A stretch of DNA of 62,693 nucleotides, the filler included, from Bdellovibrionota bacterium (lineage in GTDB: Bacteria; Bdellovibrionota; Bdellovibrionia; Bdellovibrionales; JAEYZS01), in assembly GCA_963169515.1 (NCBI GenBank). It is 4 parts of 4 records of this genome, joined end to end, with 100 filler letters (N's around TTAATTAATTAA, not from the genome) between each part and the next. Parts side by side here need not be neighbours in the genome. Positions count along the whole stretch, not along the records: positions 24,553 to 50,391 come from CAUJEF010000058.1; 3 more parts are not named here. One strand, written 5' to 3'. Of this stretch, positions 21,868 through 46,076 are shown one piece after another. The notes under the pieces were generated by a model. It was not told the origin of the DNA, searched no databases, and worked only from the letters and a program-made list of their open reading frames with translations. The first letter of the stretch is position 1. Each line of letters begins with the position of its first letter. Both the position numbers and the translations under genes were made by a program.

Positions 21868-21924
21868 AAGGTTCCAGGTTCCTTTTTGGTCCGCATATCG
21901 GACCAAAAAGGAACCTGGAACCTT
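21868..21924. repeat. Perfect 26-bp inverted repeat (5-nt loop) between divergent nupC and purK
   Basis: AAGGTTCCAGGTTCCTTTTTGGTCCG-catat-CGGACCAAAAAGGAACCTGGAACCTT. Confidence 0.95.
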
Positions 21925-33380: not shown

Positions 33381-34283
33381 ATGCTCTATCAAAGGACGAT
33401 TCAAAAGAAAGCCACAGTTAAAGGCATTGGCCTTCATACGGGGGAACCCGCGACCCTTTCATTCTGCCCCGCACCCCCTAATTTTGGAATTCATTTTGTT
33501 CGTAAAGATCTAAAGGGACAGCCATCTCTTTCTGTTCAAGCGAAAAACGTGCAAGCAACGTCGCGCGCGACGACTTTGGGTGGGGCTCACTTTTCGGTTT
33601 CAACCGTGGAACATTGCTTGTCTTCCTTGTCGGCTCTTCGCATTGATAATCTTGTCATTGAACTAGAGGGACCTGAAATTCCAATTGGGGATGGGAGCGC
33701 CAAGCCATTTTTGGACGCAATTTTTCAAGCTGGCATAGTTGAACAAGATCATACCCGAAAATATGCTTACGTGACCCAACCTATTTATTTGGGCGAAGAC
33801 GACAAGCACGTCTATGTTGTTCCATATAACGGTCTTCGCATTACGTGTACGATTTCGTTTCCACATCCCGTAATTGGTGACGAAACCCTGGACTTGGATA
33901 TTGACGAACACATATTTCAAACACAGGTTGCGCCAGCAAGGACATTCGGGTTCTTAAAAGAGGTGGAGGCCTTGAAGGCAAAAGGGCTTATTAGGGGGGG
34001 GGGGCTTGAAAACGCCGTGGTTCTGGATGCGGATAAAGTTATCAACCCAGAGGGGCTGCGTTTTAAAGATGAATTTGTTCGGCACAAGATCTTAGATACC
34101 CTGGGCGATCTTGTCACTTTGGGAGCGCCATTGATGGGCCATATTGTGCTTTATAAAACCGGACACGATTTGATGAATAAATTTATCCATAAAATTATCC
34201 AATCACAAGATTGTGTTAAATTTGTAGAGCTTGGTTCCGATCCCAGTGTCCATTTTCAAAAACTTCATTCCCAATACTCATGA
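33381..34283 (+). CDS. lpxC: UDP-3-O-acyl-GlcNAc deacetylase
   Basis: GIGLHTG, TVEH, DGSA, ARTFGF, RHKILDTLGDL. Confidence 0.97.
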   Translation: MLYQRTIQKKATVKGIGLHTGEPATLSFCPAPPNFGIHFVRKDLKGQPSLSVQAKNVQATSRATTLGGAHFSVSTVEHCLSSLSALRIDNLVIELEGPEIPIGDGSAKPFLDAIFQAGIVEQDHTRKYAYVTQPIYLGEDDKHVYVVPYNGLRITCTISFPHPVIGDETLDLDIDEHIFQTQVAPARTFGFLKEVEALKAKGLIRGGGLENAVVLDADKVINPEGLRFKDEFVRHKILDTLGDLVTLGAPLMGHIVLYKTGHDLMNKFIHKIIQSQDCVKFVELGSDPSVHFQKLHSQYS

Positions 34284-35119
34284 AAAACATGATGGCAATA
34301 TTTGTGATTTTTGTTCCCGTATTTCTTTTTGTCCATGCTTCGTGTACAAACCTGCAGCTCGACATTCTAGATGAGCGAATTCAAGACAACTTCCATGGAA
34401 ATTTATACCAGCCAACCGATATAGATCCGCCGGGAGTGAACGCCTTTTCATTTGCTGTCATGGGAGACACCCACGTCGGTAGCCCTGGCGGGGGTATTAT
34501 CACCCCGATGGTGGCCAAAGCTCTTTCGGGTGGTGATTCGTTTATTGTGGTTACAGGGGATCTTACGAATACGGGTAAAGATGGGCAGTACCGAGTTTTT
34601 AAGAATGTTATGGAAACGGGGGGATTCCCTGGGTTGTGGAGGGTGGCAATTGGAAATCATGACGTTTTTTTTAACGGTTGGCATGATTATCGAACAGAAA
34701 TTGGAAAAAGTATTTATTCCTTTGACGCAGATAATGTTCACTTTTCAATTTTAGATTCAGCCAGCGGAATATTGGGTCAAGCGCAGTTAGAATGGTTGGA
34801 AAATGACTTACGATCAACTTCTCAGCCACTGAAGGTGGTGGTGACCCACTTCCCAGTTTTTGATGGGTATTTTGGGGGGCTATTTCGTTTGGATTCTGAC
34901 GAAGAGATCGCAATTTTAAAGACGTTACTCTACAAATATAATGTGAACCTGATGTTTTCAGGTCACTACCACGGCTACGAATCCATTGTATTGGGCCGTA
35001 CTCGCTATATTGTGACTGGCGGGGCAAATGATCTTCAGGACATTGGAGAGTTTCAGCACTTTGTCCGTGTCACAGTGAATGGTAATAGTATTTCTACGCA
35101 GGTCGTGAACTTCCCTTAA
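34280..35119 (+). CDS. Exported calcineurin-like metallophosphoesterase
   Basis: GDTH, GDL, GNHD, SGHYH. Confidence 0.9.
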   Translation: MKNMMAIFVIFVPVFLFVHASCTNLQLDILDERIQDNFHGNLYQPTDIDPPGVNAFSFAVMGDTHVGSPGGGIITPMVAKALSGGDSFIVVTGDLTNTGKDGQYRVFKNVMETGGFPGLWRVAIGNHDVFFNGWHDYRTEIGKSIYSFDADNVHFSILDSASGILGQAQLEWLENDLRSTSQPLKVVVTHFPVFDGYFGGLFRLDSDEEIAILKTLLYKYNVNLMFSGHYHGYESIVLGRTRYIVTGGANDLQDIGEFQHFVRVTVNGNSISTQVVNFP

Positions 35120-35660
35120 ATTTCTTCGTAGCTTGTGATTCGAATGCGCACAACGAAATGATCGCCCGAAACTTTTATGTCAGCGGGTATGGATCTTTCA
35201 TCATATCGTTTAATTTGAAAAGCGTGGTCGTCACTCGTTAATTTTGTAGGCAAGCCCAGGTCGTTAGAGGCTTCCCATGTCAGTATTTTTTCTTTATCTC
35301 GAGATTGCTTTGCTCTCAAAAACTTTCGCAAGGCCATATAGTAGTTTTTAATGCTGGGTTTGATCTTTTCCATACTATCTTGAAAAATTTGAATTTTTAT
35401 ATTTTTACCATCGTCTTCTAGTTTGAATTCCACAGTCCCAAGGGGAGATAGGCCTAGGGCTAAACCTTTTTTTTGTTCAGTTGCAGTACTCCACTAAAGC
35501 TAAACTCTTTAGGTGGAGTGGTGCCAGTTGAAGTCACTGTAAGATCGATTCTTTGTTCGTAGGTTCCATTAGGAAATAAATTCTCACGTTCTGTTTTGAC
35601 GGTGGGGGTTTTTGGCAATGTCGAACAAGCGCACAAGACAAGCAATAAATATTTTTTCAA
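35116..35660 (-). pseudogene. Single lipoprotein gene interrupted by a frameshift at an A8 run (DUF3261-like?)
   Basis: The ORFs at 35460-35660 and 35116-35433 join into about 181 aa with one extra A or a -1 slip: ...LQLNKKK|GLALGLSPLGTVEFKL... Confidence 0.65.
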
Positions 35661-35688
35661 ATGGACCGACCTTTCCGGGATTCAAATG

Positions 35689-36459
35689 TCACTGGGTGTA
35701 TAGACCGAGCATTGTGTAATAGGAAGCCGGTGTTGCCGCTCCCATCCAGAGCGCGCTTGTGCGAACTCCCATAAGAAGGCGCACAAATGAAACTTCGCCA
35801 ACACTAATATTAAAATTAAGATCAAAGGCAACGTGATCAAGGGAGTAGTAAGAAAATGGGTCCCGAGTATTAGCATCAAATGTCCAGAAGCTTTTTTCAC
35901 CCAAGCCTTTTTTAAATCCGGCGGCGGCTGTGAAAAACGCGTAGGAATCATTTGTGTTGAGATACATTGGAGCCCACCATGGACCGTTCCATTGATATTT
36001 ATTCCATTTGTTAAAAATGCCGAATGATAAATAAGACCCAGATCGATCGGTCCAAGCAAAATAATTGTTGAATTCGATGGCAACGGAGTCATGTCCGCTT
36101 GGGATGTATTTGTAATCCTCATGGAGAATTTTTAAACTAAGAGAGGCCTTTTCAAAAATTTGGAAATCGTGGCGCACAAAATAAGCATCCCGATCACCAA
36201 AGTTGTTTCCAACAGTTACGCTTGCACCGTAAGTAAAATATCCCCCAGAGTAGGTGGGGCTTCCAAAATAAAAGTTGAATGTTTCATGATCGCCAGTCCA
36301 GCGAGGATTTACAAACCCAATACTAGCGGTAAGTGATTTTGCTGGTTGCCCACCACCAATTAGAGCGAAAGATTCTAATCCTTCGGGCGGCAGGCTTTTA
36401 GCCATGCCGCAACTCAGCAAGACAGATAAAGCAGATAAAAAACTAAATGCGGCCTTCAT
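35689..36459 (-). CDS. Hypothetical exported protein, probable beta-barrel
   Basis: LLSC signal; aromatic-rich alternating strands; ends YYTMLGLYTQ. Confidence 0.65.
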   Translation of the reverse strand: MKAAFSFLSALSVLLSCGMAKSLPPEGLESFALIGGGQPAKSLTASIGFVNPRWTGDHETFNFYFGSPTYSGGYFTYGASVTVGNNFGDRDAYFVRHDFQIFEKASLSLKILHEDYKYIPSGHDSVAIEFNNYFAWTDRSGSYLSFGIFNKWNKYQWNGPWWAPMYLNTNDSYAFFTAAAGFKKGLGEKSFWTFDANTRDPFSYYSLDHVAFDLNFNISVGEVSFVRLLMGVRTSALWMGAATPASYYTMLGLYTQ

Positions 36460-36577
36460 GAACTTCAGTTGACGTCTCCGGAGCTGCGGGGTTAAAAATG
36501 GATTCTTTCAAAAATTTTAGAAAAATTCAATCAAACTCCATTTGCGCGAGGCTAAACGAGTTTAAGAGGTTAGAAAT

Positions 36578-37684
36578 ATGATTATCGGTGTACCAAAAGA
36601 AATCAAAAATTTAGAAAACCGTGTTGGAATGACAGAAGCTGGCGTTCGGCAGTTGGTCGCTGAAGGTCATAAAGTTTTTGTTGAAAAAGACGCAGGTGTC
36701 GGCAGCGGTATTTCAAATGAAACGTACATAAAAGTTGGCGCGACCATTTTGGACACAAAAAAAGAAGTCTATGAAAAGGCTCAAATGATCGTAAAGGTGA
36801 AGGAGCCTCTTCCTGAAGAATACGATCTTCTTAAAGAAAATTTGATTCTTTACACGTATCTTCATTTGGCAGCAGAACCAAAACTTACAAAGGTATTGGC
36901 TGAACGCAAAGTAAAAGCTGTTGCCTATGAAACGATCCAAAATTCCGACGGAAGCTTGCCGCTGCTTGTGCCAATGAGCGAGGTCGCTGGCCGTATGGCA
37001 ACTCAGGTGGGAGCGATATATCTGCAAAAAAATATGGGTGGCAAGGGCGTGCTCTTGGGTGGTGTTACTGGCGTTCACCGTGCAAATGTGACAGTAATCG
37101 GCGGCGGTATTGTGGGCATTAACGCTACGAAGATGGCTGTTGGATTGGGCGCTAATGTTACGGTTTTAGACGTGAATACTCCAAGACTGGAATATTTGGA
37201 TAATGTTTTTGGCGGTCGAATTACTACATTGTACTCAAATATCACTAACATCGAAGAAACAGTTGCAAAGACTGATCTTTTGATCGGTGCGGTACTCGTA
37301 ACTGGTCATAAGGCGCCAACACTTGTCACCAAAGAAATGGTAAAAACAATGGGCAAGGGTTCTGTTATTGTTGACGTCGCTGTCGATCAAGGCGGTTGTA
37401 TTGAAACCTGTCGCCCAACAAGTCACGCGGTTCCGACATACGAAGTTGACGGAGTGATTCACTATTGCGTTCCCAATATGCCGGGCGTTGTTTCAAGAAC
37501 TTCGACCTATGCATTGACAAATGCAACATTCAAATACGCCTCAATACTTGCAGCGATGGGTGTTGAGGATGCGGTTGCACGCTACAAACCCCTGTATCAT
37601 GGGTTAAATGTGTATGGCGGTTACGTTTGTTATGAGCCAGTCGCACATGATCTAAACATGGAATATCGACCGTATAAAGTATAA
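36578..37684 (+). CDS. ald: Alanine dehydrogenase
   Basis: [31 protein letters not shown]. Confidence 0.97.
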
Positions 37685-37810
37685 ATACAGCGGAAACTAC
37701 GTTAACAGAATTGGATTTCCCGCGTCGTATTTATAAAGATAGGTAGACATTTTCCCCAATTAATTGAGAATATTTCTATGATTTGCCATAGAATGGCTTA
37801 AGGGGGAGAT

Positions 37811-38323
37811 ATGTCTAGATTAGTTATAGCTTTATTTGGCTTACTTGTTTCAATGCACGGTTTTGCAGATGAATTTCCGGGGCCAGTTGTTGGCGATACC
37901 GCTGTGGATGCTTCGGTACTTCAAGTGACGGTTGATAACATAAAAATCAACAAATCTATTTTGCTGACAAATCAGCCCAACCAATATCTTTTGATAGAAT
38001 TTGGTACCACTTGGTGTCCGGCATGTAATTCAAACTTGCCAATTTTAAGCAAGCTGTCTTCAGATATTGCAAATCTTGCCACGACACGGTTGGTCCTTAT
38101 CGACAAAGAAATGGAATTAAGTTTGAAATACATCGAAGACAATAAAGAAGTTATCAATTTTGATACAGCAATTGATTCTGAAAGAGCTGCTTGGAGTTTG
38201 TATAAAACAGGTTACGTTCCGACAAGTTATCTGGTCAGCCGCGATGGAAAAATTCTTTGGAAGCATGTGGGCAGCTACAGCGCCGAAGACGTTGCTACAA
38301 TCAAAGGCCTGATCCACGAATGA
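37811..38323 (+). CDS. TlpA-like exported thioredoxin
   Basis: Signal peptide, TTWCPAC, VP cis-Pro loop. Confidence 0.85.
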   Translation: MSRLVIALFGLLVSMHGFADEFPGPVVGDTAVDASVLQVTVDNIKINKSILLTNQPNQYLLIEFGTTWCPACNSNLPILSKLSSDIANLATTRLVLIDKEMELSLKYIEDNKEVINFDTAIDSERAAWSLYKTGYVPTSYLVSRDGKILWKHVGSYSAEDVATIKGLIHE

Positions 38324-38514
38324 TTCGTTTGCTTTTTGGACTCTTGCTTTTTGCGGGTTGTGCTCGATTTCAGCACATTGACCAGGGCCGGTTAAACCAT
38401 CCGGCCATGGATTTGAATTCGCCATTGGTTCCTGGTTCGAGTCGCTATCTCACAACTATGGATATCGACGGCAAGGGCGTTGGAAACCAGAGTTGTTCGG
38501 TATGTGCAAAATAA
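38320..38514 (+). CDS. DUF4266-like small lipoprotein
   Basis: ATG 38320; FAGC lipobox, RLNHPAM, terminal CSVC. Confidence 0.65.
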   Translation: MIRLLFGLLLFAGCARFQHIDQGRLNHPAMDLNSPLVPGSSRYLTTMDIDGKGVGNQSCSVCAK

Positions 38515-39500
38515 TACTTTTATTTCTGTTGTACAGTGGGCCGATGTTTGCGTCCTCTAAAAAGTTCAGCTTGAACTATGACTATCGTTCATTTGAGATG
38601 GGAAACTATCTAACAACGGCTGAAAATAACGGTTCCTGTCAAAGCCAAACAGTTGGATACCAGAATGAGAGTATTCTGCCAGGCCTGGGGATTTCAGGAT
38701 CACTGACTTCACAGAATGCAAATTATGCCAAAGTCTTAAATTCGACAGGACAGTTTGAATCTACTGTCGGCCAAAACTTTGCTGAATATATATCGAGTGC
38801 TCAATTTGATTATGGTCACGGTGACCATAGCGTGAGCCTGGGCGGGCATACGTATTTGTCTTCCAGTCCCTATTTTCAAAATGGAGCGCGCGCTGTTTAT
38901 AAATTTTCCTGGTTCGGATCGGCTGTGGGGACGCGCCTTCAGTATGTCGATCAACACCGTCCAGAATCTTACTATTACAATCAAAGCTTTATTTTGACTC
39001 AAAAAAGCATAAGAGTTTTTTCCCATGAGTACGCAGTATTTTATGAACAAATTTTTAATAAAAACTGGAAGGGCGCGGTCGAACTATCGACATCTCAGAA
39101 AGTGAATGATCGCCCAATCAATTTCGGTGTAGCTATCAAACAGGGGTATGCATTTACGTCACACCTATTTTCTCAATTGAAATTAAATTATAAAGCAGAA
39201 GATCGGTCAAAGCCCTTGAAGGATGACCGGGGTTACTATTCTGTGGTTGGTGGCGAAATGATTGTTACCTACGAGCCTGTGTTTGATTTGCTGCTTAGTG
39301 GTTCCTATGCTTTGAATGTAGAGCGTGAATTTAATCCATGGACGGGAAGTGAGCTCCAAGTGGGAAGTGATCATTTTGGATTGGGCGCAAAGTATTCTAT
39401 TAGTCGAGCGTTTGATGTGGAGCTACAGGGAGCGTATGCGAAGACGAACACCCAACTCTCAGACTATTCTGTGCGCGGGGGGCTGATTTGGAATCAATAA
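38502..39500 (+). CDS. Outer-membrane beta-barrel (DUF3570-like by context)
   Basis: Signal peptide, amphipathic strands, C-terminal YSVRGGLIWNQ. Confidence 0.6.
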   Translation: MCKIILLFLLYSGPMFASSKKFSLNYDYRSFEMGNYLTTAENNGSCQSQTVGYQNESILPGLGISGSLTSQNANYAKVLNSTGQFESTVGQNFAEYISSAQFDYGHGDHSVSLGGHTYLSSSPYFQNGARAVYKFSWFGSAVGTRLQYVDQHRPESYYYNQSFILTQKSIRVFSHEYAVFYEQIFNKNWKGAVELSTSQKVNDRPINFGVAIKQGYAFTSHLFSQLKLNYKAEDRSKPLKDDRGYYSVVGGEMIVTYEPVFDLLLSGSYALNVEREFNPWTGSELQVGSDHFGLGAKYSISRAFDVELQGAYAKTNTQLSDYSVRGGLIWNQ

Positions 39501-40009
39501 AGTATTTTCTATTGTTTTTGCTTGTGTCATGCGGCTCAAAAATGCCCTATGATATTCATAATCCTTTAAATTCAAAACCTTTTGGCCAAACATTGGATGG
39601 GCTCAAATTGGCAGTGAGCGATGGGACCGAGTTAGATCTGGATAAAGACGCAGAGGTTCCAACCGTAATTATTTTTGGCCTCGAATTTTGTATGTCGTGC
39701 ATAGCCGAGGTTAAAATGATTCAGGAATCTATTAAAAACCCGAGCGGCATCCCCACAAAAATCAATTTGTACTCTCTTTTAGTCGGAGTTACTCAAAGTG
39801 AAGCTCACGAATGGAAATTGTTTCACAAGGTTCGGTGGCCTGTAGCTTATGAGGAAAAATCAAATTTATTTAATCGCTTTTGTCCGGAAAAGGTTTTTCC
39901 GTGTGTTTTGATCAATACCCCTCAAAAAGGTATTGTTTACGTTGAACAAAAAGAAACCACACTTGAAGAATTAAAAACGTGGACGGGCCCATGGGAGGAC
40001 GAAGAATGA
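39488..40009 (+). CDS. TlpA-like thioredoxin lipoprotein
   Basis: LVSC lipobox, EFCMSC, FP loop. Confidence 0.75.
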   Translation: MESIKYFLLFLLVSCGSKMPYDIHNPLNSKPFGQTLDGLKLAVSDGTELDLDKDAEVPTVIIFGLEFCMSCIAEVKMIQESIKNPSGIPTKINLYSLLVGVTQSEAHEWKLFHKVRWPVAYEEKSNLFNRFCPEKVFPCVLINTPQKGIVYVEQKETTLEELKTWTGPWEDEE

Positions 40010-40437
40010 AAATACTTTTTATTATATTGTTTGCGTGTACATCTGTGAATGCAGCATTGCCGAATCGACTGTTGTCTATTGGTGTGGCCCAACAGGCGGC
40101 ACAGACAGACAAAAAATTAATTTATTTTTGGGCCACTTGGTGCACAAACTGCAGTGAAAAATTGATTACGGCATTGCCCAAGTTTCAAGAAGCCCACAAG
40201 AATGTTTCAATTACAACAGTGAGCCTAGACACTGAACGTGATCGCGTTGAGCATTATGTAAAAAAACAAAAAGTTACTGTACCTGTACTGTTTGATCCCC
40301 AAGGGACGTTGAGCAAAGAAATGGATATTTCTGCTGTACCGTATTGGATCGTTTACAAAAAAGTTGCCGACCAGTGGGAGAAGGTGGATTCTGGTGTCAC
40401 GTTTGATACTGACCGGATTGAGTTGGCATTAAGATAG
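40006..40437 (+). CDS. TlpA-like exported thioredoxin
   Basis: FWATWCTNC, AVP; ATG 40006. Confidence 0.85.
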   Translation: MKILFIILFACTSVNAALPNRLLSIGVAQQAAQTDKKLIYFWATWCTNCSEKLITALPKFQEAHKNVSITTVSLDTERDRVEHYVKKQKVTVPVLFDPQGTLSKEMDISAVPYWIVYKKVADQWEKVDSGVTFDTDRIELALR

Positions 40438-40674
40438 CCCGGCCCGAGCACCGCCCGGACGTTTTCCTTGTACGGAATTTTCAGATGAACATCCTGTTTC
40501 AATGCCTTGAGCGAATCCAAAAGCTTGCGCAGCAAGCACTGCACATAACTGGTCACAATAGTTAAATCTAGTAATTCTATCACGTTGATCTTTAGCTGTA
40601 GCTAAACAAGAAAATCGGCAATCTTGGCCACTGATTACTTAACCTTCGGTATCAAGACGGAAGAGTTTTTTTAA

Positions 40675-40951
40675 GCGCCGAGGTCCCGATCAACCCCTTG
40701 GGTTTTAGCTAAAGAATTTAGAGTTCCAAGCCCGCCCTAGGACTACCTCAGCATTTCATAAAGAAAATAAACCAACTTCCAAAGAAGAACGAACCAACGT
40801 ACAACGCTCCAAAGGCCGTTAAGTTTACGGAGAACCTTCCGATAATTAGCATAACAAAGCCGGTAAGCTTTCTTACGTTTCATATCGCCCCCTATCTCCA
40901 AGGAGGACCTACCATAGTCCGAAGCTAACCTGAGCCTCGGCACCATGGTAG
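40675..40951 (-). other. Structured mRNA of a candidate type I toxin
   Basis: 5' hairpin 40951-40909; alternative 22-bp helix between 40943-40921 and 40697-40675; SD-sequestering stem 40908-40887; 3' hairpin CTTGG..CTAAA/TTTAG..CCAAG. Confidence 0.55.
40743..40883 (-). CDS. 46-aa basic/hydrophobic peptide, candidate type I toxin
   Basis: MKRKKAYRLCYANYRKVLRKLNGLWSVVRWFVLLWKLVYFLYEMLR; SD GGAGATAGGGGG. Confidence 0.6.
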   Translation of the reverse strand: MKRKKAYRLCYANYRKVLRKLNGLWSVVRWFVLLWKLVYFLYEMLR

Positions 40952-40960
40952 TTGCAAATT
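40824..40960 (+). ncRNA. Candidate antisense antitoxin RNA with its promoter
   Basis: TTTACG(40824)-17 nt-TAGCAT(40847); a transcript from about 40859 would cover the ATG and SD and end at the 40909-40951 hairpin. Confidence 0.4.
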
Positions 40961-41085
40961 ATTGGTGCCATTCAAATGGATTTTAAATTTGTATTAAGAA
41001 TGCTATGTCCGAAATACGGACATTTAGGATTCTCATGGAGACGAAGGGGCGCGTCACAGAATCAATGCGCTTTCATAGACGAAAC

Positions 41086-41811
41086 TCACAGCGGTAGCTG
41101 TATTCGAATATGTCCCCAGTCTTCAGTGCGCAGCAAGGGGATACCGTTTTTTTTTAGGCGCTTACGAACAATGGCGTGGGGGTGCCCGTAGCGCTGCTCA
41201 CGCGCGCTGGCGATGGACAGTTTCAAATGGGATAGTTTATCCAGAAGATGCTGTGATGTGCTCGTCTGACTTCCGTGGTGGCCTAACACCAATACTCTTA
41301 CCCGATCTATTCCTTTTAAGAGGTAACACCATTTTTTTTCCATACAGGCTGTGGAATCCCCTGGAAGAAGGATATTTTCAGTTTCGATAATTCGACTGGA
41401 ATCGTTTGTGGTCTTATAAAAATTCAAATCTATTTTTTGGACCAGTGGGATTTCTGGACAGGGAAGAAGTGATTTAACAAGGCTCTTAGTAAAACTTTTT
41501 TTTGTTGTATGGGGCGGAACCAAACACGTTTTGGGTAAAGTACGGGCTACTTTTTTAACAAAGCCAATGTGGTCCCAGTCTTCATGGCTTAGGAAAATAA
41601 TGTTTTGCTTTTCGTAACATAATTCTTGAACTGGTTTTAGGGGCATGTATTCACCGCCCATATCAAAATGAAGACATTTTGAGGGCTCAACCAAGGTGGA
41701 CCACAAACCTTGGCCAACATTCCAGACAATAAATTCTTTTTCCCTATCAAGATTAATAGGTACAGCTGCAAAAAGTAACAAAGGAAACATAAATTTAGCT
41801 TTGAACTGCAT
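41086..41811 (-). CDS. ComEC C-terminal metallo-beta-lactamase domain (stand-alone)
   Basis: NVGQG, SHEDWDH, PGD, GHHGS, YGHPH; ATG 41811 with GGAG. Confidence 0.85.
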   Translation of the reverse strand: MQFKAKFMFPLLLFAAVPINLDREKEFIVWNVGQGLWSTLVEPSKCLHFDMGGEYMPLKPVQELCYEKQNIIFLSHEDWDHIGFVKKVARTLPKTCLVPPHTTKKSFTKSLVKSLLPCPEIPLVQKIDLNFYKTTNDSSRIIETENILLPGDSTACMEKKWCYLLKGIDRVRVLVLGHHGSQTSTSQHLLDKLSHLKLSIASAREQRYGHPHAIVRKRLKKNGIPLLRTEDWGHIRIQLPL

Positions 41812-42682
41812 TTTTTCTCCGTCGGTATGTGAAAAAGAAAATTGCAAAAAGATTTAAGGCCATGACATAAACCCACAGCGTCGGTTTTGAAATGGAAATG
41901 GGGGACAGTGGTGGCAGATATTCAGAAAATTTTGAAAGAAATTTGTTTAATGCAAACCATAACCAATCTACTAGGCTTGCAATTGGAAAAATAAAACTTA
42001 AGGCACACAAGGGAAATAAAACCAATCCCAAAAGCGGAGCTACAAAAGCATTTGACAGCGCAGTCAAAGGATGTGGTGGATTTAGCGGCAGCAAAACGGG
42101 CAATAGCAACAGATAGATCGATAAATGTTTTTTTAAGCCCGTCAGTTTACTACAAAGGCACAAGGCTAACGCTGCCGTAGAACTTAATAAGAATGAAACC
42201 GAGGTTATCCATTCGGGAAATAGCCCAAGTGAAAGTATCATCGAAATCCAAATTTGTTGTTGGCTTGTCCAAAAAAATCTTTTCGTATCATTGATGTGAT
42301 GAACGCACAGGCCTATGAGTGCGCGTATGACGGGTGGTTGTGCGGCGGAGATGAGCGCGTACGTAAGCAGTAATAAAAACTTCCAGTGGAACTGGATTTT
42401 TCCACGAAAGACCTTGTCAATAAAAAAACCAAGAAAAATAAGATGTGATCCAGATACAACAATCAGGTGAAGCAGCCCACAATTTCTCAAAAAAATCTTA
42501 AAAAAACTTTCGGAAAGTTGTGAGCCGCACACGATCGCCTGATAAAATTCTTGGTAATCTGATGTTGGTGCCTGTTCGATGCAAAAACGATGAGGGATTT
42601 CTGATATTTTTGCTAAATTATTCATCAGAGAGTTTGATGAGAAATTCCACACTATGACTGCTAAAATTGTTATTAACCACAT
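41795..42682 (-). CDS. comEC: ComEC/Rec2 competence (channel) domain
   Basis: GLLHLIVVSGSHL, PPVIRA, SFLLS, multiple TMs. Confidence 0.88.
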   Translation of the reverse strand: MWLITILAVIVWNFSSNSLMNNLAKISEIPHRFCIEQAPTSDYQEFYQAIVCGSQLSESFFKIFLRNCGLLHLIVVSGSHLIFLGFFIDKVFRGKIQFHWKFLLLLTYALISAAQPPVIRALIGLCVHHINDTKRFFWTSQQQIWISMILSLGLFPEWITSVSFLLSSTAALALCLCSKLTGLKKHLSIYLLLLPVLLPLNPPHPLTALSNAFVAPLLGLVLFPLCALSFIFPIASLVDWLWFALNKFLSKFSEYLPPLSPISISKPTLWVYVMALNLFAIFFFTYRRRKNAVQS

Positions 42683-43030
42683 ACTTAAATCAATTAGCAG
42701 TAGTTATGTGCCAGATTAGTGCTATTAATGCGTTCTGATTGTTTTAGTGTCCGATGGTCGGATTTAAGATGTGTGAGAAATATGTTAAGAGTTTGTGTTA
42801 ATTCAAAAAATATCTAGTTATTTTAATTACTTAGGATGGCTGAAAAATCATGCAATCCGTTGAAACCCTTGAAAATTACCGAGTCCAAGGTCTAGAAAGT
42901 GAGGTAGTCCACATATCATGTGGATAAGTCTAACAAGAGCATAAAGCGCACCCATAAATTCTATGGTTGCATCCGAATTGACGCATCCTTACCATATAGG
43001 GAGAGGATTTTTTTTCGGAAGGGAACAAGG

Positions 43031-43660
43031 ATGTTCGAACGATTTGTTATTCTCCTACCATTGTTATTATTGGCGTGCGCGCACACAAAAAAACAAATGC
43101 CTATTGTTCAAAAAAAAGCTTTCGAAAACCGGGAACTGAAAGCTTATAAAAAAATCAATAAATTAGAGGCAACACTGTTTGATTTGAAAACTCAGAACGA
43201 TATTTTAATCCAAGCGCTGAAAGATCAAAAAAATCATGGTAAACAGCCTAAACGGTCTGCTGTAACGCAATTTCCAGAGTTCGATGAGCTGGTATTTGAC
43301 CAAGCAAGGAAGGCGTATGAGACAAAGGATATTCCCCGCTTGAAAGAAGCCGTAAAAATATTGCAATCTAATCAGCCGCAAAGCGACAATTTAGATGCGA
43401 TTTACCATTGGCTTATTCAACTTCAGTACGAAGGCGACCAATACAACAATGCTTTGTATACCGCGAATAATTTTTTAAAATTAAAGCCTAAAAGCACATT
43501 GGTTCCAAATACAATTTTTATGAAAGGGCAGATTTACGAAAAAATGAATCTCAAAGCCCTCGCATCAAAAATGTATACCAACGTGAAGGATATTTACCCG
43601 GGCCATGCCATGGCAGGGATGGCATTGGACCGAATCCGCAAGATGGGTGAGGTTAAGTGA
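43031..43660 (+). CDS. TPR lipoprotein (CpoB/YbgF-like)
   Basis: LLAC lipobox, coiled coil, TPR helices ending YPGH. Confidence 0.7.
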   Translation: MFERFVILLPLLLLACAHTKKQMPIVQKKAFENRELKAYKKINKLEATLFDLKTQNDILIQALKDQKNHGKQPKRSAVTQFPEFDELVFDQARKAYETKDIPRLKEAVKILQSNQPQSDNLDAIYHWLIQLQYEGDQYNNALYTANNFLKLKPKSTLVPNTIFMKGQIYEKMNLKALASKMYTNVKDIYPGHAMAGMALDRIRKMGEVK

Positions 43661-45174
43661 AATATTTAATATTCTTTTTGTGCGTTCAAGGGGCTTGGGC
43701 TCAGAATGACATTGAAGATCGCTGGAATAATATTTATCAGCAATACTATTCACAAGCGATGACCGATGATGAGTGGTCACAAATAGCCGGCGAAAAGATT
43801 AATGAAACCTATGCTATTCAACAGGGCGACACATTGTGGGATATTAGTGTGACTTTGTTTGGAAATGGATACTATTGGCCTAAAATTTGGCAATTAAACA
43901 GCGCGATCACAAATCCTCACATAATTAAGCCTGGGTACGAACTCAGGTTTGTACCGGGCACAACTGAATCGCCGCCAGCGCTCCAAATTGCCGCAACTGC
44001 GAACAGTCCCTCTATACCAAGTGGGCCAGCTGTGCCGGGAGCTGCTCCGGTGGCAAATGCGGATCCAAATGCCCCGCAATATACAACTGTGCCGGTAATT
44101 CCGCCCCCGACTTTCAAATCCCGCCCTGTGTTAATGAAAATTCCAAAAAGCTTGCCGTACCTGACTGCAACAAAAAAAGAAAATAATTTTGATCGGGATG
44201 GTTTTACATTCGACGAAACAAAAGACAAATATTCAAAACCGACGCTAGATCTTCATACCTACATAGTCGAAACCGAACCGGATTCTGATGGGGAAGTACT
44301 CCAGGCCGAAGGTAATAAATCCATAGCGTCGTTGTTTCAAAATGTGTATGTGTCTGTCCCAGACGGAGCCGTTGGAAAAAGATATTATTCTTTCCACTTA
44401 GGGCAAAAGGTAACGGACCCCAATTCGCTTTTTGGTAGTTCGGCAGGCATTGAAGTGGAAGTCGAAGGTGAAATGGAGCTCACAGAGCTTGTGAATCCCT
44501 CTCGGAATCTTTACAAGGCAATTGTGAAAAAGACCATAAACCCAGTTCGCGTTGGGAGCCGAGTTAAAGAGGGGAACATTGAAATTTGCGATGCCACGAT
44601 AACAGATAATTTTGCAAAAGTGTCAGGCCAAGTCATTGGCGGGGAGTTTGACGGCGATCGAAAAATTTTAGGCTTAGCGTCGATTGTCTATTTCAATGTG
44701 GGCGAAGAAGAAGGTGTCGAGGTTGGACAAATGATGCGGATTTTGAAACGTGAAAAACTTAGAAACCCAGATACCCTTGTAACTCATGAAGAGGCTCCGA
44801 TCGGTGTTGCAAAAATTATCAGCGTGACGCCAAACCGATCAACGGGAGTTGTTCTTAAGGCGGCGATGGAAATCCTTCCAGGGGACTACGCGGGTGATAA
44901 TACTTTCAACGCGGTAAGCACAAATGATATTGAAAATGAATTAAAAACTGAGTCCCTGAACATGAAACAAGATCAAGAAGCAAAATCAAATCAATCTGAC
45001 TCGGATATCGACGCACAAGAGGACGCCGATGAGGCAGCCGATGTGCAAGAAGATGACGATGCGGTCCAAGAGGAAATTGATGAATCTGACGAGCAATTGG
45101 ACGAAGGCCAGCCGGCGGACGAAAATTCGGATTCCGACCTTACAGAAGAAGAAAATATAGACGAAGGGGAGTAA
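43657..45174 (+). CDS. LysM domain exported protein with an acidic tail
   Basis: YAIQQGDTLWDIS...WPKIWQLN..ITNPHIIKPG; upstream of dprA. Confidence 0.88.
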   Translation: MKYLIFFLCVQGAWAQNDIEDRWNNIYQQYYSQAMTDDEWSQIAGEKINETYAIQQGDTLWDISVTLFGNGYYWPKIWQLNSAITNPHIIKPGYELRFVPGTTESPPALQIAATANSPSIPSGPAVPGAAPVANADPNAPQYTTVPVIPPPTFKSRPVLMKIPKSLPYLTATKKENNFDRDGFTFDETKDKYSKPTLDLHTYIVETEPDSDGEVLQAEGNKSIASLFQNVYVSVPDGAVGKRYYSFHLGQKVTDPNSLFGSSAGIEVEVEGEMELTELVNPSRNLYKAIVKKTINPVRVGSRVKEGNIEICDATITDNFAKVSGQVIGGEFDGDRKILGLASIVYFNVGEEEGVEVGQMMRILKREKLRNPDTLVTHEEAPIGVAKIISVTPNRSTGVVLKAAMEILPGDYAGDNTFNAVSTNDIENELKTESLNMKQDQEAKSNQSDSDIDAQEDADEAADVQEDDDAVQEEIDESDEQLDEGQPADENSDSDLTEEENIDEGE

Positions 45175-45206
45175 ACCTGGCATTCGATCTTGCATAGTAA
45201 CCTTTT

Positions 45207-46076
45207 ATGCAATGGAAATACTTACTCGCGACCCTCCGGATGCTCACCCCCAAATTTGATGTAGAAACATTTCTTCATTTTTCAGCCCATGATTACCTTG
45301 TGAGTTATCCAGAAAAGCTATTATTTGAGCTGCCAAGGGGGCCATTGAAGGATTTCGTACGGGAACGTCCATTTTGGTTTCGGGAAGGGATTAAAATTCT
45401 TGCTTGGCTTGAAAAAAATAAGAGTTCTATCGTGTGTTACGGTGAAGAGGACTACCCCAAAGAATTTTATTTGTTAAACGAGCCACCAATTCTTTTGTCT
45501 TTTGAGGGTACTTCATGTTGGAAGAACAATAAATTGCTCTCTGTTGTTGGAAGTCGGTATCCATCACCGAAGAGCTTGGAATGGATGGATCAACATTTGG
45601 CTCCATTGGTGCGCGGTGGGCTTTGCTTGGTGAGCGGGGCAGCCCGCGGAATTGACCAAAGGGCCCACGCCATTTGTTTAAGAAACAATACGCCAACCAT
45701 TGCATTTTTACCGTCAGGACTTAAGGAAACGTATCCGTCTGAATTTAGCGAATGGAAGAAGAAAATCATAGAACATGGGGGTGCTGTTGTGAGCGAATAT
45801 TCACCCTTCCAAGCGATGAGGAAACATCATTTTTTAGAGCGTAATCGGATGATAGCACGGCTGGGGAAATGCCTGCTTGTTGTTGAGGCCCGATTGCGTA
45901 GTGGTTCAACCATGACTGCACGCCTTGCGATCGAAAATAGCCAATCTGTTTGTGTTCTTCCGGCCTTTCCCAATGATCAAAATTTTCGGGGAAGCGTAGA
46001 CCTTCTTTTTAATGGCGCATTTCCAATTCGTGATTCGATTGATCTTAAGATGCTAATGGATTTGTCGCACAGCTAA
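45207..46076 (+). CDS. dprA: DNA-processing protein DprA
   Basis: VVGSR, VSGAARGID, FLERNRMI, VVEARLRSGS. Confidence 0.92.
   Translation: MQWKYLLATLRMLTPKFDVETFLHFSAHDYLVSYPEKLLFELPRGPLKDFVRERPFWFREGIKILAWLEKNKSSIVCYGEEDYPKEFYLLNEPPILLSFEGTSCWKNNKLLSVVGSRYPSPKSLEWMDQHLAPLVRGGLCLVSGAARGIDQRAHAICLRNNTPTIAFLPSGLKETYPSEFSEWKKKIIEHGGAVVSEYSPFQAMRKHHFLERNRMIARLGKCLLVVEARLRSGSTMTARLAIENSQSVCVLPAFPNDQNFRGSVDLLFNGAFPIRDSIDLKMLMDLSHS

Follow-up and report, generated by a model that had tools for sequence, protein, structure and literature searches.

The locus, its copies and their repeats

The window, a stretch of 62,693 nucleotides, comes from a metagenome-assembled genome of 2.38 Mb (96% complete, 173 contigs). 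Among the best 120 relatives of its LpxC, all four matches with an organism name were from Bdellovibrionales or Bdellovibrionaceae. At the locus, comEC is split into a PF03772 gene (41795–42682) and a beta-lactamase-fold gene (41086–41847). Together with genes for a TPR protein, a LysM protein and dprA, these form a competence-type cluster (41086 to 45207..46076). Between the end of the split comEC and a converging thioredoxin-like gene lies a small element with an open reading frame:

40646..41064, minus strand: whole dispersed element, about 410–420 bp (blastn and nhmmer on the genome itself)
40743..40883, minus strand: 46-aa ORF, candidate toxin with a basic N-half and a hydrophobic or amphipathic C-half (frame open across copies, AlphaFold2 helix)

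The initial annotation placed the ORF just downstream of comEC, and the split comEC is indeed directly upstream. We saw no clear terminator at the junction. But the link to comEC is only positional: the flanking genes differ between copies, and the other seven adjoin unrelated genes. In three of the four same-family genomes with DNA downstream of comEC, the beta-lactamase gene directly abuts lpxC, so the stretch of about 6.8 kb between lpxC and comEC, element included, is lineage-specific. This stretch (34280–41064) also holds phosphoesterase-like, alanine dehydrogenase-like, beta-barrel-like and three thioredoxin-like genes (named partly by eye).

We found at least eight copies of the element in the genome (blastn and nhmmer), with 87–94% identity. 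Five are full: C58 (the copy under study), C65, C31, C166, and C30a. The other three are partial: C78 has an internal 86-nt deletion and is cut by a contig end, C81 has lost both ends, and C30b is cut by a contig end. Homology among the copies spans about 41064 to 40646, with boundaries common to the copies and just past the long-range helix described below; the homology of C30a ends with the last base of that helix (40675..40697).

That several copies lie at contig ends of a metagenome assembly in 173 pieces might suggest an assembly artefact, or else a chance pattern in an intergenic stretch. However, read depth was 80–108 over the element against 11 on its flanks in run X2, and 33 against 3–5 in run X6, or 8–10 times the flanks (depth itself is no copy number). 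Furthermore, contigs from two other studies carry identical variant letters, and the junction of the 86-nt deletion recurs in contigs from different studies, a third run among them. The copies are not an artefact, and we consider this explanation as a whole to be very improbable.

Outside this genome, a DNA search of 60 relatives gave three matches of 26–28 bp and no element. A profile search of 389 genomes of the class gave 24 matches with E values of 0.002–0.05, which is chance level. We scanned those 24 loci for an antisense sigma-28 site and read seven of them, and the layout was present in none. (Two of the loci share 11 of 21 N-terminal residues, but this is another frame of a longer gene, so we rejected it.) Searching 389 class genomes for the architecture as a pattern gave one match each in four of them, with unrelated sequence. 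Pfam, NCBIfam, PHROGs, PADLOC, and Rfam had no significant match to the peptide or the RNA. A search of 5.8 billion proteins gave a single match, a 67-aa call at 91% identity, which is probably another copy of the element; a search of 1.84 billion proteins gave the same 67-aa match and a repeat protein matching 10 residues, and nothing else. Collections of metagenomes, viruses, genome contigs, phages, and plasmids gave no real match. As far as sequence comparison goes, the element is found in only one Bdellovibrionales genome or species among the collections searched.

The left end of the element carries two repeats that also occur elsewhere in the genome:

41033..41054, minus strand: short repeat specific to this genome, at the left end of the copies (mismatch scan, comparison genomes)
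41007..41021, either strand: 15-bp palindrome in the promoter spacer, the central hairpin of the genome's REPIN-like repeats (loop-length count)

The short repeat starts all seven copies with an assembled left end. It has 24 sites in the genome at up to two mismatches (versus none in two simulated genomes), and 27 sites score above the best reversed control. There were 18 matches in this genome and none in 150 other genomes of the order. Most sites are just behind stop codons, and some adjoin type II toxin-like, HNH-like or Y1 transposase genes (judged by eye from translations). The repeat varies from 22 to 75 bp, and the sites on C27, C104, and C102 are full palindromes upstream of genes. Pairs of repeats flank single secreted-protein genes like cassettes, in direct orientation on C155 and C142 and inverted on C166. 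The sites at C145:29139 and C155:11769 have a further 90 bp downstream in common (76% identity), which is possibly a second small cargo. We rejected the short repeat as an Xer dif site, as there is a separate canonical-looking dif site on C169 near 3718; by eye, it also does not fit a CRISPR repeat, attC or a sigma-54 promoter.

The palindrome has 34 strict matches with a 5-nt loop, versus 1–2 at other loop lengths. It is shared, with its variable 5-nt loop, by several REPIN-like families (65 relaxed sites, mostly intergenic). Two further copies lie in the window: the one at 21889–21903 sits in the middle of a perfect REPIN-like inverted repeat, and the one at 42749–42763 is upstream of comEC. 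(The palindrome is not an SOS box, as it is absent upstream of lexA and recA.) The genome has 12 genes for Y1/RAYT-type transposases from at least two clades (for example on C69, C139, C145, C128, C110, C7, C137, C84, C152, C1, C105, and C96). RAYTs are usually single copy (PMC5581495). Only three short-repeat sites outside the element have the palindrome nearby, and we saw no target duplication at copies of the element. That the element spreads by RAYT activity or by recombination at the repeats is a guess.

The predicted sense transcript and its folding

The predicted features of the mRNA are:

41000..41027, minus strand: candidate sigma-70-type promoter, with the −35 box at 41027–41022, a 16-nt spacer, and the −10 box at 41005–41000 (by eye, from aligned copies)
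40909..40951, minus strand: leader hairpin, 18 bp (from folding); on the other strand, it would form the hairpin at the 3' end of the predicted antisense RNA
40887..40908, minus strand: hairpin of the anti-SD (40906–40901) and the SD (40893–40888), with six pairs kept in 5/5 copies
40921..40943, minus strand: 5' strand of the long-range helix, which cannot form together with the leader hairpin (pairing, RNAalifold)
40675..40697, minus strand: 3' strand of the long-range helix (pairing, RNAalifold)
40740..40746, minus strand: stop-codon segment that pairs with 40920–40914 and extends the helix to 29 bp (invariant in 5/5 copies)

The −35 box is good in five copies and poor or degenerate in C58, which may instead be transcribed by read-through from comEC. 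A consensus promoter scan did not return the candidate at 41000..41027 among its sites.

The pairings described in the initial annotation are all present. The 5' hairpin (40951–40909) forms 18 of 18 pairs and is in the minimum-energy fold. The long-range helix between 40943–40921 and 40697–40675 forms 22 of 22 pairs on the minus strand and 15 of 22 on the plus strand (the other seven are G-U pairs). The leader also pairs with the stop-codon region as a 6–7 bp helix of 40920–40914, and the anti-SD/SD hairpin lies at 40908–40887. The 301-nt stretch as a whole folds at −99.2 kcal/mol (z = −2.97), and none of 100 shuffles was as stable.

Folding favours the strand of the ORF. The leader hairpin has −21.8 to −27.2 kcal/mol on that strand versus −12.9 to −23.8 on the other. 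The duplex between the leader and the 3'UTR has −50.7 kcal/mol in C58 versus −34.4 on the other strand, and across the copies −46.7 to −52.9 versus −23.4 to −34.4. Random stretches of the genome give −29.5 ± 7.3 kcal/mol (n = 1,500). A duplex as strong as that of C58 arose in 3 of 300 shuffles; for the four other full copies, the counts were 0, 32, 6, and 11 of 300.

Whether the long-range helix is favoured and conserved has a mixed answer. It is kept in all of the full copies (95.5% of cells pair), and the RNAalifold consensus of the five copies is the long-range helix with its stop-codon extension (29 bp). But at equilibrium, the local leader hairpin wins in C58: the helix has a probability of about 0 and is 6.4 kcal/mol less stable than the best fold. 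Its probability is 0.99 in C31, 0.2 in C30a, and 0.08 in C65, and it is disfavoured in C166, so it wins in only one of five full copies. Where the copies depart from Watson-Crick pairing in the helix, 11 of 12 states are G-U on the mRNA strand; given the composition, P is 0.03 (counted by hand, with the exclusion of two register artefacts and a terminal mismatch). Covariation, which the initial annotation had looked to along with homologues, was not significant: the score was 0.130 versus 0.132 for shuffled alignments, no pair had changed on both sides (likewise for the hairpin state), and no homologue turned up outside the species. A test of pairing retention gave 10 of 14 (P = 0.21). We think that the two-state leader is probably real.

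The initial annotation also pointed to hok/Sok and aapA/IsoA, whose mRNAs are silenced by 5'-3' pairing and SD sequestration and become active when the 3' end is trimmed. For the element, the folding does not bear this out. The helix pairs the leader, not the SD, and adds nothing to masking of the SD, which is held by the local anti-SD hairpin in every modelled state. Opening the SD and AUG is predicted to cost 6.2–7.0 kcal/mol with the helix forced, 6.9–8.9 in the free full-length RNA, and 6.0–9.2 after 3' truncation; between full-length and truncated forms, the shifts are under about 2–3 kcal/mol and have no consistent direction. This is no refutation of activation by trimming, because equilibrium models miss co-transcriptional and ribosome effects. 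Opening the SD alone is predicted to cost 4–7.5 kcal/mol, and sequestration of the SD by a local hairpin is predicted in 5/5 copies.

In all full copies, the anti-SD/SD hairpin is traversed by an upstream ORF of 7 codons (40915–40892, minus strand) that lacks a good SD; the C30a version is longer and overlaps the main start codon.

The antisense promoter, the variable loop and the peptide

Three further features lie within or opposite the ORF:

40819..40845, plus strand: sigma-28 (FliA)-type promoter inside the ORF, with the −35 box at 40819–40826, an 11-nt spacer, and the −10 box at 40838–40845 (consensus match)
40852..40963, plus strand: predicted antisense RNA of about 110 nt, made up of a variable stem-loop at the 5' end, an unpaired region across the start codon, and a hairpin at the 3' end (folding; ends predicted)
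40856..40871, both RNAs: 5-bp stem with a hypervariable 6-nt loop (40861–40866; codons 6–8), the predicted site of kissing-loop specificity (copy alignment)

The promoter is opposite codons 13–22 of the ORF. We scored sites with the 16-position sigma-28 consensus, which is that of E. coli. Six of seven copies match it at 14 of 16 positions, and C30a at 13. The whole genome has 16 sites with the same spacing and at least 14 matches, and six of these are copies of the element; with spacing that is one shorter or one longer, there are four and six such sites. Because the 10 other sites are spread over 4.75 Mb of strand, an ORF of this length would hold one by chance about 2 times in 10,000 (this rests on the genome-wide count, treats the copies as one event, and is before allowing for a motif chosen after looking). 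Relaxed sites outside the element show a modest enrichment: 10 at the element's spacing versus 11 at one longer and 6–7 at others. The genome encodes fliA and six flagellin-length genes, three of which have a sigma-28 site with the same spacing upstream (at up to three mismatches). We also noticed strong sigma-28-type sites at C94:29396, C41:1283, and C160:878 that lack a downstream ORF of at least 80 aa; these are candidate promoters of small RNAs.

In Bdellovibrio bacteriovorus, FliA drives 92 of 140 attack-phase promoters (PMC3627812). Both boxes of the antisense promoter are those of the B. bacteriovorus attack-phase consensus (PMC3627812, PMC12622784), although the gap between the boxes that is stated in PMC3627812 is one base longer.

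The predicted antisense RNA would start at about 40852, which is about 7 nt downstream of the promoter, and would cover the leader, the SD, the start codon, and codons 1–11. Its 3' hairpin mirrors the leader hairpin; its 3' end is uncertain because the U tail is weak. Its folding has z scores of −2.4 to −2.8 in four of the five full copies and −0.85 in C31. Two RNA-labelled runs (X16 and X20) covered only scattered parts of the stretch, and gave no RNA contig over the ORF.

The loop near the 5' end of this RNA is different in all seven copies, with 2–5 of the 6 letters differing between any two. Its mean divergence is 0.67, versus 0.03–0.10 in other segments (0.20 in the 3' strand of the helix and 0.03 in the 3'UTR). 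The six loop columns hold 10 distinct variants and the other 132 columns hold 25 (P about 5 × 10−5, corrected for the choice of window). The 5-bp stem is kept across the copies, while loops elsewhere in the element (for example in the promoter palindrome) are invariant. Non-cognate pairs of loops match at 1–5 of 6 positions, with 5 reached once in 42. The loop variants recur in contigs from two studies.

We also considered that the element makes sigma-28-driven small RNAs that use the variable loop as a seed for targets in trans, or that it is a non-coding repeat derived from REPINs, with the ORF being incidental. The explanation by trans-acting small RNAs stays alive because variable seeds would show the same pattern, and B. 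bacteriovorus has FliA-driven small RNAs (PMC3627812). Also, the element does carry a REPIN-type hairpin and the genome-specific repeat. However, a small RNA alone would not need the roughly 200 bp upstream of its promoter, which are conserved (divergence of 0.03 in the 3'UTR), nor does it explain why folding of the leader hairpin and the 5'-3' duplex favours the strand of the ORF. The DNA of the element has no terminal inverted repeats, and the end-to-end helix relies on G-U pairs.

The evolution of the peptide is in keeping with an incidental ORF. We saw no sign of purifying selection on the peptide: there are 7 synonymous and 29 non-synonymous variants among the copies, and pN/pS is 0.80 overall and 1.29 for codons 10–46, beyond the loop (the counts are small, and synonymous sites are constrained by the promoter and the structure). 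The frame is open in all seven copies that hold the ORF, with the SD at the right distance, although C81 has lost the stop. But all copies would stay open with a probability of 0.15 under neutral change, and the antisense frame in register is likewise open. Because of this, our case for translation and toxicity is based on the architecture and not on the evolution of the peptide. Overall, we consider this alternative, with its incidental ORF, unlikely.

The peptide itself is as the initial annotation described it, with 46 aa, a net charge of +11, and a hydrophobic C-half. Across the copies, the net charge is +9 to +11 and the best 19-residue mean hydrophobicity is 1.43–1.78, which is borderline for a membrane span. 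AlphaFold2 predicts one long helix (pLDDT of 84, from a 7-row alignment with little information). Residues 26–35 include 8 variable positions, where the changes are mostly to hydrophobic or small residues. (We rejected a longer 67-aa form starting at 40946, which is frameshifted in two of five copies. In the ESM Atlas, the nearest named cluster was TisB at 0.76, which is below the threshold, and we do not use it as support.)

Such a cationic helix could also have a role in the host. It might be an antisense-controlled small membrane protein, for example one that acts on the envelope of the predator or the prey, and be kept off by FliA in the swimming phase and made in the growth phase. Its anatomy would be identical to that of a toxin, and a phase-specific sigma factor is odd for an antitoxin that must be ever-present. 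Yet a host role gives no reason for eight scattered copies with orthogonal loops, and leaves unexplained the restriction to one species and the lack of selection on the peptide. We regard it as quite unlikely.

Two of the broken copies show a pattern of decay. C78 lacks the leader hairpin and has a changed first base in the −10 box of its mRNA promoter. C81 has lost the stop codon, the 3'UTR and the helix, together with the entire mRNA promoter. In both cases, loss of a silencing structure goes together with damage to the mRNA promoter, which is what a toxic product predicts (these are two cases, and both copies are behind co-oriented genes). Both have kept the strong antisense promoter, as the explanation by small RNAs would also have it. 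C30a shows the opposite trend: its antisense −10 box is weakened and its mRNA promoter is intact, while it also has a stronger anti-SD hairpin and a Tyr-to-Asp change in the peptide.

The proposed module and its relation to known systems

We propose that the element is probably a type I toxin-antitoxin module, present on the chromosome in several copies and new as a sequence family, with an AapA/IsoA-like organisation and copy-specific kissing loops. The initial annotation had already suggested an unannotated type I family. The dispersal in many copies, the antisense promoter, the hypervariable loop, and the pattern of decay speak for this, while the lack of purifying selection on the peptide speaks against it. 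What our analysis of the DNA adds is the sigma-28 promoter inside the ORF, the predicted antisense RNA, the multi-copy dispersal, and the hypervariable loop. We infer both transcripts, translation, toxicity, the kissing step, and dependence on FliA.

In our proposal, an mRNA of about 320 nt from the minus strand, with a predicted start near 40993, would encode a cationic, helical, membrane-seeking peptide of 46 aa. Its SD would be held by the adjacent anti-SD hairpin, and its leader would have two options, the local hairpin and, after synthesis of the 3' end, the 29-bp 5'-3' helix. From the other strand, the sigma-28 promoter in codons 13–22 would give the antisense RNA of about 110 nt, starting just before a stem-loop that is complementary to the mRNA stem-loop at codons 5–9. 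Pairing between the two loops would nucleate a full duplex over the start codon, the SD, and the leader, which would block translation and probably be followed by cleavage by RNase III. If divergence of the 6-nt loop serves to restrict each copy to its own antitoxin, then many copies could coexist as separate addiction modules.

A more specific version is doubtful but worth stating: FliA, which as master regulator governs the non-dividing attack phase, would write the antitoxin, so that the toxin would be repressed while the cell swims and exposed when FliA shuts off inside the prey, with the 6-nt loop as a barcode and spread by RAYTs and REPINs. If so, this would be a type I system in the Bdellovibrionota that is timed by a developmental sigma factor, and a toxin switch would be tied to the predator's transition between attack and growth. 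If the module is real, then it would also supply seven naturally orthogonal RNA pairs whose difference is one 6-nt loop, with which the specificity of kissing loops could be tested cleanly and which could serve as ready parts for engineering Bdellovibrio; and it would show small toxin-antitoxin modules that multiply next to REPIN-type repeats. So far, it is limited in reach to one uncultured species. By title and the beginning of the abstract, the open-access literature that we searched had no type I toxin-antitoxin system from Bdellovibrio (T1TAdb and the supplements of papers may list a candidate), and no FliA-driven antitoxin.

Among known systems, ibs/Sib likewise occurs as repeated loci whose variable recognition segments lie inside the ORF. 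Ibs peptides are much shorter and wholly hydrophobic. Furthermore, Sib spans the whole ORF (PMC8594479), while the predicted antisense RNA here covers codons 1–11 only.

RAYT-associated REPINs resemble the element in being genome-specific, intergenic, often just after stop codons, and in having the central hairpin. However, no inverted pair of REPs bounds the element, which has just the central hairpin, at its left end, and the element carries an ORF and two promoters. A profile search for short relatives of its right end found none.

The peptides of hok/Sok and ldr/Rdl are similar in length to the 46-aa ORF. In these systems, as we propose for the element, an early 5' hairpin is replaced by 5'-3' pairing (PMC6733600). 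They differ in that their antisense RNA is 5' of the ORF and acts via a leader ORF (PMC8594479), whereas the predicted antisense RNA overlaps the ORF here and the upstream in-frame start is frameshifted in two of five copies. Also, the element has no match in Pfam or Rfam.

AapA/IsoA of Helicobacter and Campylobacter differs from the element in several ways. Our ORF has 46 aa instead of 30, the antisense promoter is of the sigma-28 type instead of a housekeeping −10 box, and a single variable loop lies inside the ORF, whereas AapA/IsoA has two in the 5'UTR. The helix here excludes the SD, and in silico, 3' trimming leaves the SD closed. We found no homology to AapA/IsoA by matches in Pfam, NCBIfam, PHROGs, PADLOC, and Rfam, libraries that may lack AapA/IsoA models. 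In size, with 46 aa and a predicted mRNA of about 320 nt (both ends predicted), the element fits the type I class, in which proteins have 20–60 aa and mRNAs have 150–400 nt (PMC8594479). Antisense RNAs of the class have 60–200 nt; for the one predicted here, what we saw is a promoter and a fold, and no RNA contig over the ORF. Like the element, AapA/IsoA has several chromosomal paralogues (PMC5416894, PMC6733600, PMC8594479) and combines a local anti-SD hairpin with a 5'-3' interaction (PMC6733600, PMC8594479), and the sequence of an apical loop restricts each antitoxin to its cognate mRNA (PMC5416894). Finally, as in AapA/IsoA (PMC5416894, PMC8594479), the predicted antisense RNA lies within the mRNA and overlaps the start of the ORF, with its promoter inside the ORF.
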